The notes beneath the pieces are model-generated. The model ran no database searches, was not told where the DNA came from, and was given only the letters and a program-made list of their open reading frames with translations. Made by a program: the position numbers and the translations under genes. This document shows, in pieces, positions 38,788 to 50,979 of a DNA stretch of 64,000 nt; position 1 is the first letter of the stretch, and each line of letters starts with the position of its first letter. The stretch comes from Stylophora pistillata (Eukaryota): assembly GCF_002571385.2 (NCBI RefSeq), contig NW_019218163.1, positions 202,939-266,938 on the forward strand, written 5' to 3'.

Positions 38788-38962
38788 GTCTGCAGACATG
38801 GATCAGTATTCTGATGAGGAATCCCCAAGACAGCTTCAAGGACATGGCGGTAGGCATAGGGGTAGAAGCCGCCATCCAATGGCAAGAGGACAGGATACAG
38901 ATTGGGATAGGAGGCAGCCAAGGTAGCAGCGGGGCAAGTGTAATAAGACTAAGACTAAAACT
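38788..38962 (+). repeat. 175-bp duplicate of the EML C-terminus and stop region (38394-38568)
   Basis: Ungapped match with 8 mismatches by manual count. Confidence 0.92.
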
Positions 38963-40712: not shown

Positions 40713-42671
40713 TCATGAGTAATGAAATTGCTGCATTAAAGATAAACTTCCATTTGTCATTGTATACACATTGACAATCTTCTGATTGTTCGACCACAGT
40801 CTAAACTGAATGGCAGAGAATACCGCAATAGCTGACAAGAAGAATGCCAAAACAGCTCTCCATGGACGTGCACCAGCACGCTGTTCCAGAAGAAACTGCA
40901 TAACTTTATCCCAGCAATCTTCCTGCTCTGACCTCCTCTGACGACTAACTTGGCGAACCAAGCGATTCCACAAATAATCAACATCAACATTTCCAAGAGA
41001 GATGATTGGCAGCATTAAGAAGAAGAGTAACAGAAGTGAATGCAAATATTGAAAAAAAGGCAATGGATTGGTCTTTACAATCCACACATGTAACTCAAGA
41101 AAAAGACAGACTGTGCATAGAATTAGGTTCAGTGCAATCCAACCTGAGGAAAATTCACGGAATTTGTGGAAGGCATCAAATGCTTCAGCCAAACGAGCTC
41201 GACACAAATCAATGTTGTTGATGTTTTCACGCAGAAACTTTGTTACCAATTTGATTTCTGACTCATAGCTGCAACGTAGAAGGTACACTAAGTAGCAAAA
41301 TCCACCAAAGTTAATGTAGCCTTCTACAATGACAAAAAAGTGAAGAGGAACCAAAGTTGTTAGACTAGAAAGTGTTTCATTAGCAACCATGGGTGAGACC
41401 AGCTCTGGGTCAAAATATGGCGCTGCTATCTTCAGACACTGGGTGCACATCACAGCCAAGCTCCCAACGAAGAGGGCGTAACCAGCAAACTGCTTATCCT
41501 TCATGTTCACAAATCGCATACGATGGACAAGGAATTCTACAGCCAATGCATTTGACCAGCTTCCCATGAACATAGTTGGCCATGTGGTGTGCACAACAGA
41601 AATGAGACAAGTGAATGGACCAACATAGAGCAACAGCTTCATTCCAATCCAGGCAAGCACATGAACAATATCACAGCCAGAATTTGCATAGCTTGTTATC
41701 AATAGCACAATGTTAGCTAATGTTATACCAGTTATGAGCAGGAGCCACACCAATGACAGAAAGCCACTTCCACAGTGGTTCAGAAAGGATGAGCCAATTT
41801 CATGATCAGTGATAACAGTTGGCACACCTTTGTAATCCCATGTCAAGCTGTCACATACTTTACACTGATTATCTGTGTAGTAGAATGCAGTGTGCTTCTT
41901 TGACTTTATGCATCTGTTGCATAGTTTGGAGCAAACCAGAAAACCTAAAGAAAGAAAAATAAATCAGATGTAACACAGTATCAAAATGAACATGGAGCCC
42001 ATGACATGACTGACAAGGCTCTCTGTTGTATTCAGAGCACCCAGGAATGGTTAATTTATGTGTTTACTAAAGTGTACACCCATGTTGATATATTAACCCT
42101 TTAAACTCCCAAATATGATCAATGATTACTAGTAACATCTCCACTTATCTCTACATTATTCTGAAAACAAAGTGATAACAATAGAAATATTTAATGTTTG
42201 AAGGACACTATCTTGATGTAACATTACATTCTCTCAACTACTTTCCAGCATATTATTGGAGGTAGTAGGAGAACTGCTAGTCAGATGACACCAAACAGGT
42301 ACAGGAAACAGAATAACAGCTGTTTTTTAAGAAACAGGACACATGAAAGTTTAGTTTGAAGGAATTACTTTTCTTGAAGTGTACTTTGATCCTATGACAC
42401 TTATCAGGAAATGCCTTGGGTATTTTACACCAAATATCTGAGAACAGAGGAACTTAACAAAAAAAAATTTTGAGGAATATGTTTAAATATTATCGGCATT
42501 AAAAACAGGAAACTGTACTACAGTTATGCTTTTACCAGAATGATAAAGCCCTAATGTCTTGAAGTAGAACCACAAGAGGATCGGCCATCTTTCACCCACT
42601 TCAGCTGCTCTTAAAATGGGAACATTCACAGACTCACTGCTACCACGGTGAATGTTCAGTGCGCTGGACAT
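40713..42671 (-). CDS. Uncharacterised 7-TM membrane protein, probably gustatory-receptor-like (7TMIC/GRL), ~455 aa
   Basis: Exons 42671-42536 and 41944-40713 join in phase 1. N-terminal FKTLGLY segment, seven hydrophobic helices, final helix ending ...FSAIQF. Upstream exon(s) are possible. Confidence 0.7.
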
Positions 42672-44602
42672 CTAAACGATAGAAAATAAGTTGGAAAAAG
42701 ATCAACAAATAAAACAAACGCACTTCAGGACTTAAGAAAAGTTTTGAAATACCCTATACCACTGAAAATGAGATGTGAAAATTGTCGTTGGGTTAAAAAA
42801 AAAAATTTCAACCAGATTCCAGATTCCCTCTATTTTGCTCAAGAAACCATCCAACCAACTTACTATTATTAGAACCCTTTCCTTTTTTTGAACAAATTTA
42901 AAATCCAATCATTTCCCTATTTTCAGAACATTGTCTCCCAATTTCCGGTACATATTTAGAGCAGTGATCATGAGCATTTCCTGTCCCAAATTAACAATCT
43001 CAAATTAACAGTCGTCCACTCAAGTAGATGCACTTGGCTCAAATTGACTAGTTTTATGGTTTGTAAAAAAATTGTTGCTTTGAAGAGACAAAATACTGGA
43101 TTCAACTTCGCGCCGAAGAATCCCTTTGACATTGTTCTAGAAGTTCGAAACCGCCCCCATACTTCGCATATGCACACGAAAACCGTGATTTCATGAGATC
43201 AAAAATCGCAAAGGCCTTTAAATTTTGCTGTATTGAAATGTAATGAAATTAGATCTTATGCCTCGTTTCCAATTTTTCGCGCAACACTCTGAGCAAAATT
43301 ATTCAGTTTTTTTTTGTGCACTCCATTACGCAACGAAGCAACCTGAATATTACGTGACATGGCGTAATGTTTATTTCTCGTGACATTTGTAGAAATATGA
43401 AATACGAAAGATTGCCAGCACCAACAAGGCTGAAGATAACAGGCATTTAATAATAAATGAGTGTCGTTTCCTATAACGATCCTCAATCACTGCATTCAGC
43501 TTAGGAGACCTCAAGTCGTAAGGGTTAAATGTTTCGTCGAGACCTGTAAATTTGAAAAATAACAACTAACCTTTTTATCGGAATTCGCTGCTCCACTCCA
43601 TTCCGCCGAGGAAGACGTGTAGAAGGTCGTTTTATTTCGCATATTGCGACCAGAGGGGTTTACTGCAAAGCAGAGAGGCAGATCACTCGGAAAGGCAAGA
43701 CAAAAGATGGACAGTTCCCTTGGTTCTAGTCTCGTTACATAACATAACAACAACAAATAGATATTCGTTTTCCCATGAGAAAACAGTAGTCGATCAGAAT
43801 GACAAATGATGTGAATTTACTGATTGCGCCCGAGTAGATCGTCGATTTCTTAAAAACTTAATTGACGAGAATAAAAAGAGCTTCAGTTTTCTCTTTTCAC
43901 TGCAAAAGTTTTGAAATGGAGAAAAATTGACCTATGAAGCTTGAGGGCTTGCAAGTCATTGCAACACAGTCAAAGTTGCTGCTTTGAAGCTTTGATTCGC
44001 GTCATGACAAATTCTAGAACCGTTCAAAAACCCATCAAAGATCGTTTAGGGCACGTTCGCTGATTTCCACTTAAACAAAGAGATCTGTCCAACTTTCTTT
44101 CCACATCCCATCCCATGAAATAAAATGTTCATAAGCAGCAAAAATAAATTCACATTTTCCCAGGATAACTTACCAGATCTTCACTCAATTTTCTATGTCA
44201 GCCGGAGAAATCCATGTTTGAAGCTCACATCGCATGTCTGCTTAGGTCAGAGTTCAAAGATATGTCATCGCTTTTTTTTTACACCGTCACGGACACCGTC
44301 ATGTGAAAGTTAGGTTCCAAAGGAGGCCGGATAAGGAACGATAACAGAATCAAAACTAACACCTGAAGATATAAAATTATGACGTACATTCTCACCTGGG
44401 TTCGCGATATTCAAACGAGTTCATGATCGTTTACCTCCACGCGTCCGCGCGTAAACTCGCATTATACCCGCGCGCCATTCGCGCATACTAGGGCCATACC
44501 CACAAACCCTAGCGGTATTTAGTTTACACGGCATTTCGGTTACAGATTCGAACGATCCTAACAAAATTTGTACCGATCTGTCGCTACGACAAACGTGATA
44601 TC

Positions 44603-47549
44603 ATGATCAAAGTCATAACATCGGTCGTCTGCGCCTTTGCAGCGATCTTGATGATAATTTTGAGCTTAGCCACGACCTACTGGCTGCAGTGGGTGATAGT
44701 TTCTCACAACAGAAACATCACTCATTACCGAGGTTTGTTCAGGCATTGCTGGGAATCCAGGGACAACGTTACAGACGAACTCATCAGCGCGGAGTCTGAT
44801 TGTTCCAGTGACAAGCACACGCTCAAGGATGTACTGAAATCAGGTGAGCAGTTAATTTGGTAACCTTTGAAAATGGTTAGTAGAGGGAAGTAGGCGTAGT
44901 ACAGGAACTTTCTAGTCACTTTTTTTTTACTCCATAACCGAATCTAAGATTTGAAAGGAGCAGCGCTCGACGTAACTACCTGTCAGTGACGATTTCTTTC
45001 TTTTGACTTGTGCGAGATAGACTGCGAAAAGTTTTTAATCATTGTAACTAGTGAACCATTGCGTTGTAATTTTTAAAATCATACGTAAAATATTTTTATG
45101 CGTGAAGTGAAGCGAGCATAAATGAAAGCATGCATGTTAATCAAGCAGAACGCTACGTACAGATTCCTTTCAAATTTTAATCGGCACACCCTGTGATTTC
45201 GTTCTCGGGAAAGCGCAGCTCTGAGGGAACACACGTTAATACTAAACAATGATCAAAGTCATAACAAGCTTTGTGAGCTGTTTAGCGGCAATTCTGTTAG
45301 GAATTTTGGCACTAGCCACCGACTTTTGGCTAGTGTGGTGGAAAGAAGCAAAGGAAATCGGAGGTGTACAATATCATCATGAAGGCTTGTTTCAAACTTG
45401 TTCTGAAACCTCGATCAATAGCACTGTAGTTGCTGCCGATAGCTGCACAACATTACATGATTTGGGAAGACCAGGTAGATCATTTTCGGATTTGTTTCTA
45501 AATAGTATATCGAAGATAAAATATTTGCGTGTCTTGTGTACATTTGTGTTCCTTACTAGTATCTGGCTGACTGATAGGGCAGTAAGTTTGCTCATAGTCT
45601 CCCTACATGATAAATCTTTCTATAACATCAAAGTAACTTTACAGTGTAACTTCTGTCAGTAACTAATTCTGTTAACTCGGAGTTAAATAGATCGATGTCA
45701 GCAAGAAACTTGATAGTTTCGAATAATTATTCTAATTATGAACAGTTCTTATACATATTTTAAAGGTTGTGAATCTTTATGAGAATATTTGTTGTTCATA
45801 GAAACTTTTGTGTTTCAGATTTTAGTCTTATTTCATGAACTACCAGTAAATTATTGTGAAAAGTTTGAAAACAACATACTGAATATTCTCTTCTCTTAGA
45901 ATACAAGCATGTTCTGGAATTTTCTACGAAATAGCAGTGATTCTCATCAATAATAAACAATCAAAAAGTGCATTAGATATGATTTGCAACTGTTGCTTTT
46001 TCACTGTGCAGTGTGTTAGGACCTCTGAGTCAATGTTACTAAATCAATCAAGTTTCAATTGACCACTAACACTATTGGAAGGGTGAAGCCTCTGTGTAAA
46101 GACAGAACAGCTTGTAACTGCGTGGTTATATATTTACAGGTTCCTGGTGTGATTTAAAGAAATCTTGAATAACAGCATAATCCAATATGAGACCAATTTT
46201 ATGTGGTTTATGCGTAACATGCTTGTCATTTAGTAACTAGTCCACAATTTTTATTTGATTGTACAATTGTACACTGTACTTTGTTGTTCTCCTACAGAAG
46301 CAAATACTCTTACTTTGATTTGCTGTTTACAACAGAATTAATGCAGTATGTAACAGTGTGTAATTTTCAGGTTGATTTTTTGCCTCAAATAATTACTGGT
46401 GGCAGTGCCTATACGGTAACAAACAGAAACATGACTGTGTTAGCAGAACACTGCCACAGCCTAAAACTAAGAAAAAATTACCTCAATTAATGATGTCCCA
46501 ACAAAGAATATCCAGGCATGAACATAAACAATGATAGTTTCCAGCATTACATGACCCATTTTAAACAAGTGCCGTGGTTTACAATAAGAAATGCGCTGAT
46601 GTTTGTTCAGAAACCTTAGCTATTCCAAGAAACAAACAGATTAAGGAGACTGAAGCTTGAGGACAACTGACTACTGACAAATATTCATGCAGATAATTGA
46701 TGATACGCAAGGGAAAAAATTCAAGCTTAAATTTTCCTTCTGTTTAAAGCTCATCAGACTAGCTGATGTGTACATCGTTCTGGAAACATTGTCCTGCCTC
46801 ATTGAACAGAATATTTACCAATGTTTTCCTGTCTAAAATATTCACTGCCAGTGGTGTTGACTTTTAGGGCTCTCTCTTCAGACAAGTTTTTATCTTTTTT
46901 TATTAACAATCATTTTATCAATTTTGTGGTTATGTATAATAAATTTGTCCTGAGTATGATTGTAGGCAGAGCAGAGTTCAAAATCAGCACATTTATTTAC
47001 TCCACACCACTGCCATGTCCCTCCTTATTTAAGCTTTGATGTTCATGGTTATCTACAGGATGGGACAAAAATAAATGCTGGTCTCTCTCTCTCTAATTGA
47101 ATGAAAATGTTTTGAGTACTTATAGATATTGTTTTTTTTTTTTTTCAGACTGGAATGGAGCAGTGATTGCCTTGATGTTTCTGGCCCTCATCTGCCATTT
47201 AATTGCCTTTATCATAGCCATTGTGGCAGCAATACGAAAGGGACATCCTTTTCCATCCTTTACTGTAGGCGGATTCTTCTGTGCAGCAGGTATGTACAAC
47301 ATAATAGCTGTTGAGTCTTGTTATTAACCTTCATGAGGAAAAGGCACCTGAAAAACTTGGATTTGATTTTTGTTTTGAACAATCTCCTCTCTGTTTTTCT
47401 ATGTAGCTATTCTTGTGGTTATCGCTTTGCTGGTCTTCACATTTTTTAACTGGAAGGATGATGTGTTCTTCAGCTGGTCATATGGCGGAGGATGGTCTAC
47501 AGTGGCATTGTCCATTATAGCATTTGTGTTAATTATGGCAGATCGCTGA
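44603..47549 (+). CDS. Claudin/PMP22/EMP-family tetraspan protein, isoform a (174 aa)
   Basis: Exons 44603-44843, 47149-47289, 47407-47549; W...GLF..C...C signature, 4 TM, FSWSYGGGW. Confidence 0.85.
45249..45474 (+). CDS. Alternative first coding exon (isoform b, 169 aa) of the same claudin-like gene
   Basis: Own ATG, TM1, W...GLF..C...C, and a phase-1 donor CAG|GTAGAT compatible with the exon at 47149. Confidence 0.8.
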
Positions 47550-49003
47550 GGAATTGCAGAGCCCAACTGACAAATCAAACAGAAAGTAGACTTCAACACC
47601 AGATTGTTCCAGTTGGACATAACTAGCATTATGGCCTCAAAGTCAAGAATGGCATTTGAACATTTTGTAAGTTAAGTGTGTAAAAATTTTATGTGGATTT
47701 GTTGCTGGGCTCAAAGTATTCTACAGTGCACCTTTAATCCTTGTATGTCATAACATAATCAACATCTCAAAAAAAACTTGATTTCTAAAGGATCCTCATC
47801 TGAATGAAATAATGATGTTGACAACAAAATCAAAAATTATTATGCTTGAAAACGTTATCATCAAGGGTTAAATATGTTCAACAAATTACCAGGATTTCTC
47901 TTGTTAAAAGTGCTTTTTGCTTTTTTTCCCTGTAGTTTAGTTTTTCTATGACAGCGACACAATTTTCTTCTCCAAATGGAATAAAATTTAAACCAAGCAA
48001 AGTTTACAAAGTCACAACACTGATGGTTACAGTTTTTTTGTTTCTATTTATTGGCTTTAGTTAATGTATTTTTTTATTAGATTAGAAAGTGGAATTTAAA
48101 AATGTATAAGGTTAAAATTATGGAATGAGTCCATAACATTTCAAGTGAGATAAATATCATTGCATAGCCTGGCATCTGATGTAACTTACTAAATTGTGGA
48201 TGTAAAAAGTTTTTTCACCTTTTGAGACATTTTTTGTTACCCAGTATGCATAGCAATGCATGCTAAGTATTTATACTGAGACACAATTTTGTACATAATT
48301 AGGATTGTTTTGTTCTGTTTTGCCTTGTTTTTCATTGCAAATGCAAATTTATTGATTGCTTCCCTTTGAAAAAATACCCTAATTAACCTTGACAACCTTG
48401 TGTTTCAAGAACATGTTTATTGGTTATTTTGGGTATTTTTAGAAATATGTTTCCTCCACCTTAGGAATGCTAGGAAAATTTAAATATATTCGACAAAGCA
48501 AAGTGTGTTTCCTTGTGTTTTGACTGAGTAGAATATTTCATAGTGTGGCACTGAGTTGAATTTCCCAGTTAAGGACCCTAAATATCATTTCTTTATTCTT
48601 TAAAGGTTGTTTGATAGATCAATACCATCACTATTGTTATACATTAGACTTGTTCAAGAGCATTCAATCACTACACAATAATGTGTGTAGCTGAGATGAT
48701 AGAAGCAGTATCAGCATTTATCATGTTGAGTTCAAAGTCTGCCTAGCTTCTAAGCCTCTTATCCACGAAGTGTTCTCATGGCAGCACATTATGAAACAGT
48801 TATTAAATTCTTGTGTATATGTTATCTGCCTCAGCCTTCGGCTTTAGCAGATTCATACGCGGAATGCAAATTTGGTGTCCAGTTTGAATTGCCATTCTTC
48901 TGGACTTACTAGCCTTGTCTTCACATGGAAACACAAAAGGATTTTTACATGTGTGAGAGGCTAGTGAGTCCAGAACAATGGCAACTCAAATTGGTCGCCA
49001 ATA

Positions 49004-49235
49004 TACGTATCTATAACCGCAGTTCAAAATATATGAACTTCATATATTCATTGTATCTGATTTATCATCACGGGTTTATTACGAATCAACTTAACGGCCT
49101 GCTCCCAGTTGGCTTGTTAGCTCAATTGGTAGAGCGCTGCACTAGTATCGCAGAGGTCAGTGGTTCGAATCCCGTACAGGCCTGATTTTCGCTATTGCAT
49201 AAATAGCGCTCTCTACTGCGAGGATCGTGCATCAT
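49004..49235 (+). mobile_element. Repeat unit with internal tRNA-Thr(AGT)-like cloverleaf (49111-49183)
   Basis: Acceptor stem GGCTTGT/ACAGGCC, D arm GCTC/GAGC, anticodon loop CTAGTAT; T-stem mismatched; flanks shared with 11411-11754. Confidence 0.75.
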
Positions 49236-49899: not shown

Positions 49900-50593
49900 G
49901 ACGAGAGGGACACAAGAGTTAAAATTGCGAACGTAAGTGTGAAAGAAAATGCGCGAGATACTAACGTAACAATCTAAGAGAGTAAAGTAAAAAAGGGCGA
50001 GATTCTCACATAACAATAAAAGAGAGAAAATTGAAATTGCGCAAGAATCTAATCTCACAATCAAAGAAAGAAAGCTGAAAATACGCGAGATACCAACAAA
50101 ACAATCAAAGGAGATTGGGTAAGATTGTAACGTAACAATCAAAGAGAGAAAACTAAAAATGCGCACGATTCTGATGTAACAATCACAGAGAGAAAGCTAA
50201 AATGCGCAAGATTCTAACGTAACAATCAAAGAGAGAAAACTAAAAATGCGCAAGATTCTGATGTAACAATCAAACAGAGAAAGCTAAAATGCGAAAGATT
50301 CTACCGCAACAATTAAAGAGAGAAAACTAAAAATGCGCAAGATTCTGATGTAACAATCAAAGAGAGAAAGCTAAAATGCGCCACATTCTGACGTAACAAT
50401 CAAAGAGAGAAAACTAAAAATGCGCAAGATTCTGATGTAACAATCAAACAGAGAAAGCTAAAATGCGAAAGATTCTACCGCAACAATTAAAGAGAGAAAA
50501 CTAAAAATGCGCAAGATTCTGATGTAACAATCAAAGAGAGAAAGCTAAAATGCGCCACATTCTGACGTAACAATCAAAGAGAGAAAACTAAAA
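49900..50593. repeat. 43/44-bp satellite with 174-bp higher-order repeat, running into the gap at 50594-50979
   Basis: Unit aaaatgcgcaagattctgatgtaacaatcaaagagagaaagct; the variant gcgaaagattctaccg recurs at 50291 and 50465. Confidence 0.92.
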
Positions 50594-50979
50594 NNNNNNN
50601 NNNNNNNNNNNNNNNNNNNNNNNNNNNNNNNNNNNNNNNNNNNNNNNNNNNNNNNNNNNNNNNNNNNNNNNNNNNNNNNNNNNNNNNNNNNNNNNNNNNN
50701 NNNNNNNNNNNNNNNNNNNNNNNNNNNNNNNNNNNNNNNNNNNNNNNNNNNNNNNNNNNNNNNNNNNNNNNNNNNNNNNNNNNNNNNNNNNNNNNNNNNN
50801 NNNNNNNNNNNNNNNNNNNNNNNNNNNNNNNNNNNNNNNNNNNNNNNNNNNNNNNNNNNNNNNNNNNNNNNNNNNNNNNNNNNNNNNNNNNNNNNNNNNN
50901 NNNNNNNNNNNNNNNNNNNNNNNNNNNNNNNNNNNNNNNNNNNNNNNNNNNNNNNNNNNNNNNNNNNNNNNNNNNNNNN

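Follow-up and report, generated by a model that had tools for sequence, protein, structure and literature searches.

A claudin-fold gene on the plus strand of a 64,000-nucleotide stretch of Stylophora pistillata DNA (hereafter the window) joins either of two duplicated coding first exons to common exons 2 and 3, yielding two four-helix membrane proteins that differ in the first transmembrane helix (TM1) and the first extracellular loop (ECL1). RNA contigs contain both junctions, and a tree of first exons indicates that the pair is older than the split between sea anemones and stony corals.

Exon structure and splicing

As the initial annotation had it, two exons open with an ATG and the same first 18 nt, exactly at 44603 and 45249 of the window, and each encodes TM1 plus a loop and ends in a phase-1 GT donor. 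Exon 1a (44603-44843, 241 nt) encodes ECL1a with the motif YRGLFRHC and the sequons N38 and N55, and exon 1b (45249-45474, 226 nt) encodes ECL1b with HEGLFQTC and a sequon at N57; both exons are assigned from their junctions, the RefSeq products and dN/dS. The motifs and sequons (NIT and NVT versus NST) are those claimed at the outset, and the loops are indeed strongly diverged, 1a and 1b having 35 of 84 aligned positions in common. In the six frames of the window, W-GLF-C-C loops are found only in 1a and 1b. The first six codons of the two exons (44603-44620 and 45249-45266) also use the same synonymous codons, through chance or local gene conversion.

The acceptor at 47149 fits both phase-1 donors (44843 and 45474). 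The common exon 2 (47149-47289; sequence, RNA, single genome copy) encodes TM2, the inner loop and most of TM3, and the coding part of the common exon 3 (47407-47549; sequence, RNA, structure model) encodes the end of TM3, a short ECL2 (WKDDVFFSWSY), TM4 and a stop a few residues later. The products have 174 aa (a) and 169 aa (b), with four hydrophobic segments each. They are identical to the S. pistillata RefSeq proteins XP_022800998.1 (isoform X1) and XP_022800999.1 (isoform X2), named 'claudin domain-containing protein 2-like', and both isoforms are therefore already catalogued, by automatic annotation only. When protein searches of the species' own 398 Mb genome were run and the best candidates scored, exons 1a and 1b were recovered together with a single exon 2 and a single exon 3, in agreement with the single set of downstream exons proposed initially. 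Pfam models run against the genome match one exon at a time; none reached the cut-off, and the scan is uninformative about further claudin-like genes.

Of 24 listed runs, 20 contain the stretch, and four from four studies (X1, X3, X5 and X6) were analysed. All four consist of contigs only, which can miss rare forms; two are on record as RNA and two are presumed to be RNA. The junction from 1a to exon 2 (44843>47149) is present in all four runs and that from 1b to exon 2 (45474>47149) in three, being absent in X1, so that both predicted junctions are borne out by RNA contigs. The missing b junction in one run is a weak hint that isoform use differs between tissues. Exon 2 is joined to exon 3 (47289>47407) in 4/4 runs, and no joint from 1a to 1b occurs in the RNA contigs of any of the four. 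The term 'alternative first exons' describes the pair more exactly than 'mutually exclusive'. RNA pairing was considered as a mechanism of exclusion, and the repeat search gave only short inverted repeats at chance level.

GenBank gene models from Pocillopora (P0059) and Acropora (P0063) run exon 1a into a cryptic acceptor inside 1b, as would be needed for a five-helix protein that uses both exons in tandem. This product is rejected: the four runs contain no RNA joint for it, and the pyrimidine tract in front of the cryptic AG at 45285 is poor (0.48 versus 0.76-0.86). A fifth helix would, moreover, invert the topology of the body. The other form of artefact, two separate genes whose body was collapsed in the assembly, is largely refuted by the RNA joints, by the one body among the best candidates in the species' own genome and by three independent contigs with one body each. 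We give an assembly or annotation artefact of either form practically no credence. Stop read-through, as in longer database proteins (P0002, P0003 and P0021), is also rejected; TGA is read as Trp in these proteins, and beyond the stop three of six related loci lose the open frame after a few codons, with another being divergent there.

The 3' UTR (47550-48600) reaches at least 48600 and is covered by high-depth RNA contigs in 4/4 runs to the end of the stretch examined. A polymorphic insertion at 47729-47734, absent from the window, is seen as loose contig ends in three of the four runs; it carries terminal inverted repeats of 17 nt and seems to be flanked by a 6-bp target duplication. The genome holds 185 occurrences of the repeat end, many of them in pairs about 178 bp apart, so that the insertion belongs to a MITE family. 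Further downstream, a tRNA-like or tRNA-derived SINE-like stretch was noted by eye at about 49105-49185, and a LINE- or satellite-like tandem repeat, its unit about 60 nt long, extends from about 49950 to 50500, toward an N gap at 50594-50979.

Promoters and upstream non-coding sequence

The likely promoter of isoform a lies at 44400-44545 and would be shared with a minus-strand gene that stands head-to-head, as judged from CpG content, RNA contig starts and short motifs. CpG o/e is 2.12 in 44400-44599 and 1.52 in 45000-45199, and it is at most 0.42 from 45800 on. RNA contigs start upstream of 1a at 44546-44573, and short motifs at 44496 and 44519 are common to the window and three coral contigs (L012, L013 and L016). 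The minus-strand neighbour (40716-44300) has a spliced joint, 44174>43662, in X3 and X5 and a 409-codon open exon with no Pfam match, and it stands at the same position and in the same orientation in L016. A partial copy of its large exon (about 41390-41570), some 200 nt long, was noted by eye on the minus strand at about 38590-38790, 2.8 kb downstream.

A non-coding block of ~220 bases that ends at the 1b ATG (45027-45248) can be aligned to each of the three coral contigs and includes a 23-nt invariant run at 45102-45124. The other non-coding parts of the gene show no alignment with these contigs, except for a few bases next to exons and behind the stop codon. From the alignment, the CpG content and an X5 contig, the block is likely to hold the promoter and 5' UTR of 1b. 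In X5, the 1b contig begins at 45206, has a depth of 42.8 versus about 2-4 in the flanking introns, and makes up all the depth of the bin 45088-45248. A pyrimidine tract followed by an AG is present at 44995-45020, just upstream of the conserved block, and recurs in L012, L013 and L016; it resembles a splice acceptor, and no joint to it occurs in the four runs.

The alternative to a second promoter is that all transcripts start at promoter a, with 1b-spliced RNAs being read-through products that keep 44844-45248 and isoform b being minor, decayed or a product of re-initiation. One unbroken contig in X3 and X6 runs from 44814 to the 1b donor (44814-45471), which could be merged pre-mRNA or read-through from promoter a; X1 lacks the b junction, and the a donor is non-canonical in the three coral contigs. 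Against this stand the separate and much deeper 1b contig of X5, the stronger conservation of 1b than of 1a together with the conserved block of its own, and the read-through RNA itself, which would carry an 86-aa ORF ending at 44861 and eight ATGs before the b start. We therefore consider a single promoter very improbable, and the sequence makes it likely that each first exon has its own promoter, that of 1b lying in 45027-45248.

Conservation and age of the exon pair

Both exons are conserved in other corals, as the initial annotation anticipated. In 6/6 named X1/X2 pairs compared, the two isoforms have the same 94-aa body and differ in the first exon; these pairs come from Stylophora, Pocillopora, Acropora, two Montipora species and Nematostella, and they cover both robust and complex corals. 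For Oculina, Orbicella, Porites, Exaiptasia, Actinia and Actinostola the b form only was retrieved; several of these are labelled X1 or X2, and a second isoform is therefore implied. Among 13 metagenome loci, three extend far enough upstream, seven contain nothing but downstream exons, and the remaining three are distant relatives that have a single loop and no introns. The three far-reaching contigs (L012, L013 and L016), which are closely related and count as about one lineage, all have the order 1a, 1b, exon 2, exon 3, with an ATG spacing of 645-657 compared to 646 here. Their exon 1a donor is a non-canonical GC (at about L012:1234, L013:908 and L016:3940), and it is GT in the window.

Compared to these three contigs, exon 1a has a dN of 0.18-0.20 and a dS of 0.92-1.08, and exon 1b has a dN of 0.072-0.075 and a dS of 1.0-1.13. 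With dN/dS at about 0.07-0.2 overall, the substitution pattern indicates that purifying selection acts on both first exons, 1b being the more conserved.

In a 17-row tree of named first exons, the split between a and b is supported at 100/99. The AU test rejects trees in which all anemone exons form one group (p = 0.008) and trees in which the two Nematostella exons do so (p = 3e-9). On the basis of the exon tree and these tests, the first-exon duplication is older than the anemone/stony-coral split. That split lies about 500 million years back. The split between robust and complex corals alone is reported as at least 245 million years old (10.1101/197830). A 30-row exon tree could not place Hydractinia and three long-branch rows; the Hydractinia relative is annotated without an isoform suffix, and the length of its branch prevents its use in dating the duplication. 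A recent duplication, as the 18-nt identity might suggest, is ruled out by the exon tree and by the starts in other corals; the identity is no sign of recency because, in the three coral contigs, 2 of the 18 positions are not the same in the 1a and 1b starts.

Family placement and predicted structure

Both isoforms pass the cut-offs of PF00822 (33.5 and 30.5 versus 26.7 bits) and PF13903 (39.5 and 38.3 versus 29.1 bits). The model of isoform b, built from a 24-row alignment, has a pLDDT of 86 and predicts four helices and a four-stranded ECL1 sheet. The model of isoform a, built from 13 rows, has a pLDDT of 60, with values below 50 at residues 36-78, and gave no significant Foldseek match. The b model is matched best to MP20 (Z 18.6, rmsd 2.2, 151 aligned residues, 25% identity), followed by TARP gamma-8 (Z 17.9), TARP gamma-3 (17.6), claudin-15 (17.5) and claudin-4 (17.2), the five being nearly level and the lead of MP20 over gamma-8, gamma-3 and claudin-15 amounting to about 1 Z unit or less.

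The classic claudin motif is W(X>8)GLWxxC(8-10X)C, and many invertebrate claudin-likes are reported to depart from it (PMC3879130). It is found in none of 11 family rows; 10 of them have GLF or GLA, and 14-20 residues separate the cysteines. All 11 end in ADR or ADK a few residues past TM4, with no tail and no PDZ ligand. The label 'claudin-like' therefore stands as far as the predicted claudin fold and the two Pfam families are concerned, and the protein is a member of the superfamily rather than a classic claudin, because it has GLF for GLW, a different cysteine spacing and no tail.

Within the superfamily the nearest relatives are ranked differently by different searches. A coral-only profile places TARPs (gamma-2/-3, 8e-6) above MP20 (3e-4), followed by claudin-4, all of them weak matches. 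With a CLDND2-like row included in the profile, MP20 comes first, so the ranking depends on the profile. The best nameable match outside the close family in a representative search is a CLDND2-like protein (E 7.5e-5), and 16 of 24 residues of the ECL2-TM4 stretch are identical to such a protein. Like MP20/LIM2, PMP22/EMP and CLDND2, the coral proteins have about 170 aa, four helices and almost no tails; they differ in the longer ECL1, with its 14-20 residues between the cysteines. We lean toward placing the protein on the MP20/PMP22/CLDND2 side, as suggested by its size, its sequons and its ECL2-TM4 sequence.

A long cytoplasmic C-terminal tail is a feature of type I TARPs. The TARP/CACNG proteins share the fold with the coral protein (Z 17.9, TM-score up to 0.79) and match it weakly in sequence, and the protein could accordingly be an auxiliary subunit of an ion channel or receptor (TARP/CACNG- or GARLH-like) in which the swapped loop sheet would alter gating or the choice of partner by cell type. 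TARP gamma-2 and gamma-3 lead the coral-only profile matches, TARPs are the top Foldseek matches of the b model, and the top atlas match is a cluster with the automatic name 'CACNG6 family protein' (0.93). However, the PDB match lists are inflated by many redundant TARP entries, the coral protein lacks a cytoplasmic tail while the matched TARPs have 314-336 residues, and the gamma subunits are reported as a bilaterian novelty (PMC4202318). We regard an auxiliary-subunit role as rather unlikely.

The two outer loops

Between W and GL the a loop counts 17 residues, and it carries the sequons N38 and N55 in 5/5 named rows; the b loop counts 19 residues over the same interval, with a single sequon, at N56-58, in 11 of 12 rows. 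The residue before GL is Arg in all five named a-type rows, and it is Arg in five and Gln in three of eight other a-type fragments. In b-type loops it is Glu in 8/8 stony-coral rows and in one of four named anemone rows. The total charges in S. pistillata are +7/-8 for the a loop and +3/-6 for the b loop, both net acidic, and the net loop charges across five pairs lie between +1 and -3. The charge swap that was read at the signature is therefore real as a single Arg/Glu site, conserved in stony corals, and it is not a reversal of whole loops; the oppositely charged ECL1s of the CLDN10a/b type are not found. For comparison, the claudin-10a loop is reported to carry +7/-1 (PMC6862131), and modelled pores are given charges of +8 and -12 (PMC10970694).

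The third position after the first cysteine and the first position after the second are occupied by Ser or Thr in both isoforms here. We take these to be the main selectivity sites of CLDN10, and the Arg/Glu position before GLF presumably corresponds to Q45/A47 of CLDN10. The latter residues are listed as pore-lining in claudin-10 models (PMC10970694).

These features bear on whether the two forms act in the manner of claudin-10a and -10b, their loops lining paracellular septate-junction pores of different charge selectivity and isoform choice tuning ion flux, for instance into the calcifying space. The gene design is that of CLDN10 (PMC6862131), the Arg/Glu residues are kept at a site that would be pore-lining, the predicted fold matches claudin-15, and a Hydra claudin-like is described in a meeting report as located at septate junctions and needed for osmoregulation (PMC10463417). 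On the other side, both S. pistillata loops are net acidic, the presumed main selectivity sites are Ser/Thr in either isoform, Glu is missing from three of four anemone b loops, the classic motif and the PDZ tail are absent, and anemones do not calcify; according to a review, evidence that the claudin-likes of C. elegans regulate paracellular ions was lacking (PMC3879130). We find a claudin-10-like role doubtful. The fuller proposal, that hexacorals, before stony corals and anemones separated, independently evolved a two-promoter switch of the pore loop of a septate-junction protein and that the stony-coral Arg/Glu site sets ion selectivity into the calcifying fluid, strikes us as decidedly improbable. 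As to the calcifying epithelium named in the initial annotation, non-calcifying anemones keep both exons, Nematostella has both forms, and the exon pair therefore did not arise for calcification.

Discussion

The reading we prefer, and hold to be slightly better than an even prospect, is a promoter-driven swap of the loop on an MP20/PMP22-like contact protein, which would change the partner bound at cell contacts. Each first exon would be driven by its own promoter, and cell types would choose between the two. Transcripts from promoter a would pass over exon 1b, presumably because 1b has no acceptor in use. By analogy with lens MP20 or PMP22/EMP, the protein may be small, glycosylated and active in adhesion or sealing, with its loops touching those of the cell opposite; if the loops face a partner cell, exchanging them on an unchanged body would provide two specificities of binding or sealing. 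MP20 tetramers are reported to adhere head-to-head via their loops (PMC11947226).

Coding alternative first exons are not known from MP20, PMP22, EMP and CLDND2 genes; those of PMP22 are non-coding. CLDN18.1 and CLDN18.2 do have the alternative-first-exon design. It is also found in CLDN10a and CLDN10b, where two alternative first exons, each with TM1 and ECL1, are set on a common body (PMC6862131), and the modelled coral protein would share their overall fold (Z 17.2-17.5 to claudins). The coral protein differs from these claudins in that it lacks the classic motif and the tail, its loops are not oppositely charged, and the loops bear N-glycan sequons. Because the coral gene probably lies in another branch of the superfamily, as judged from sequence and structure, the design appears to be convergent with that of CLDN10. 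The proposal of a convergent variable-loop/constant-body system, independent of CLDN10 and CLDN18, is accordingly supported by both junctions, the conserved pairs and the exon tree. The septate-junction claudin-likes of Drosophila (Sinuous and Megatrachea) and of Hydra belong to the same Pfam families as the coral protein, and cnidarians are described as having septate junctions and many claudin-like genes (PMC4681288, PMC9729800).

The design, from CLDN10, and both isoforms, from automatic RefSeq annotation, are already known. Our literature searches listed no paper on the isoforms of this gene or on an ancient independent pair; Ganot et al. 2015, reportedly a survey of cnidarian claudin-likes, may list both forms. 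The present analysis indicates that, within the claudin superfamily, alternative first exons that exchange TM1 and ECL1 have at least two separate origins. The retention of the exon pair since before anemones and stony corals separated suggests that ECL1 is a natural module of specificity in these proteins. In single-cell data from corals and Nematostella, counts made per gene lump together two proteins whose outer faces differ. This locus is a test case for the tuning of cnidarian junctions by claudin-like isoforms, and it bears on the route by which seawater ions reach the calcifying space.
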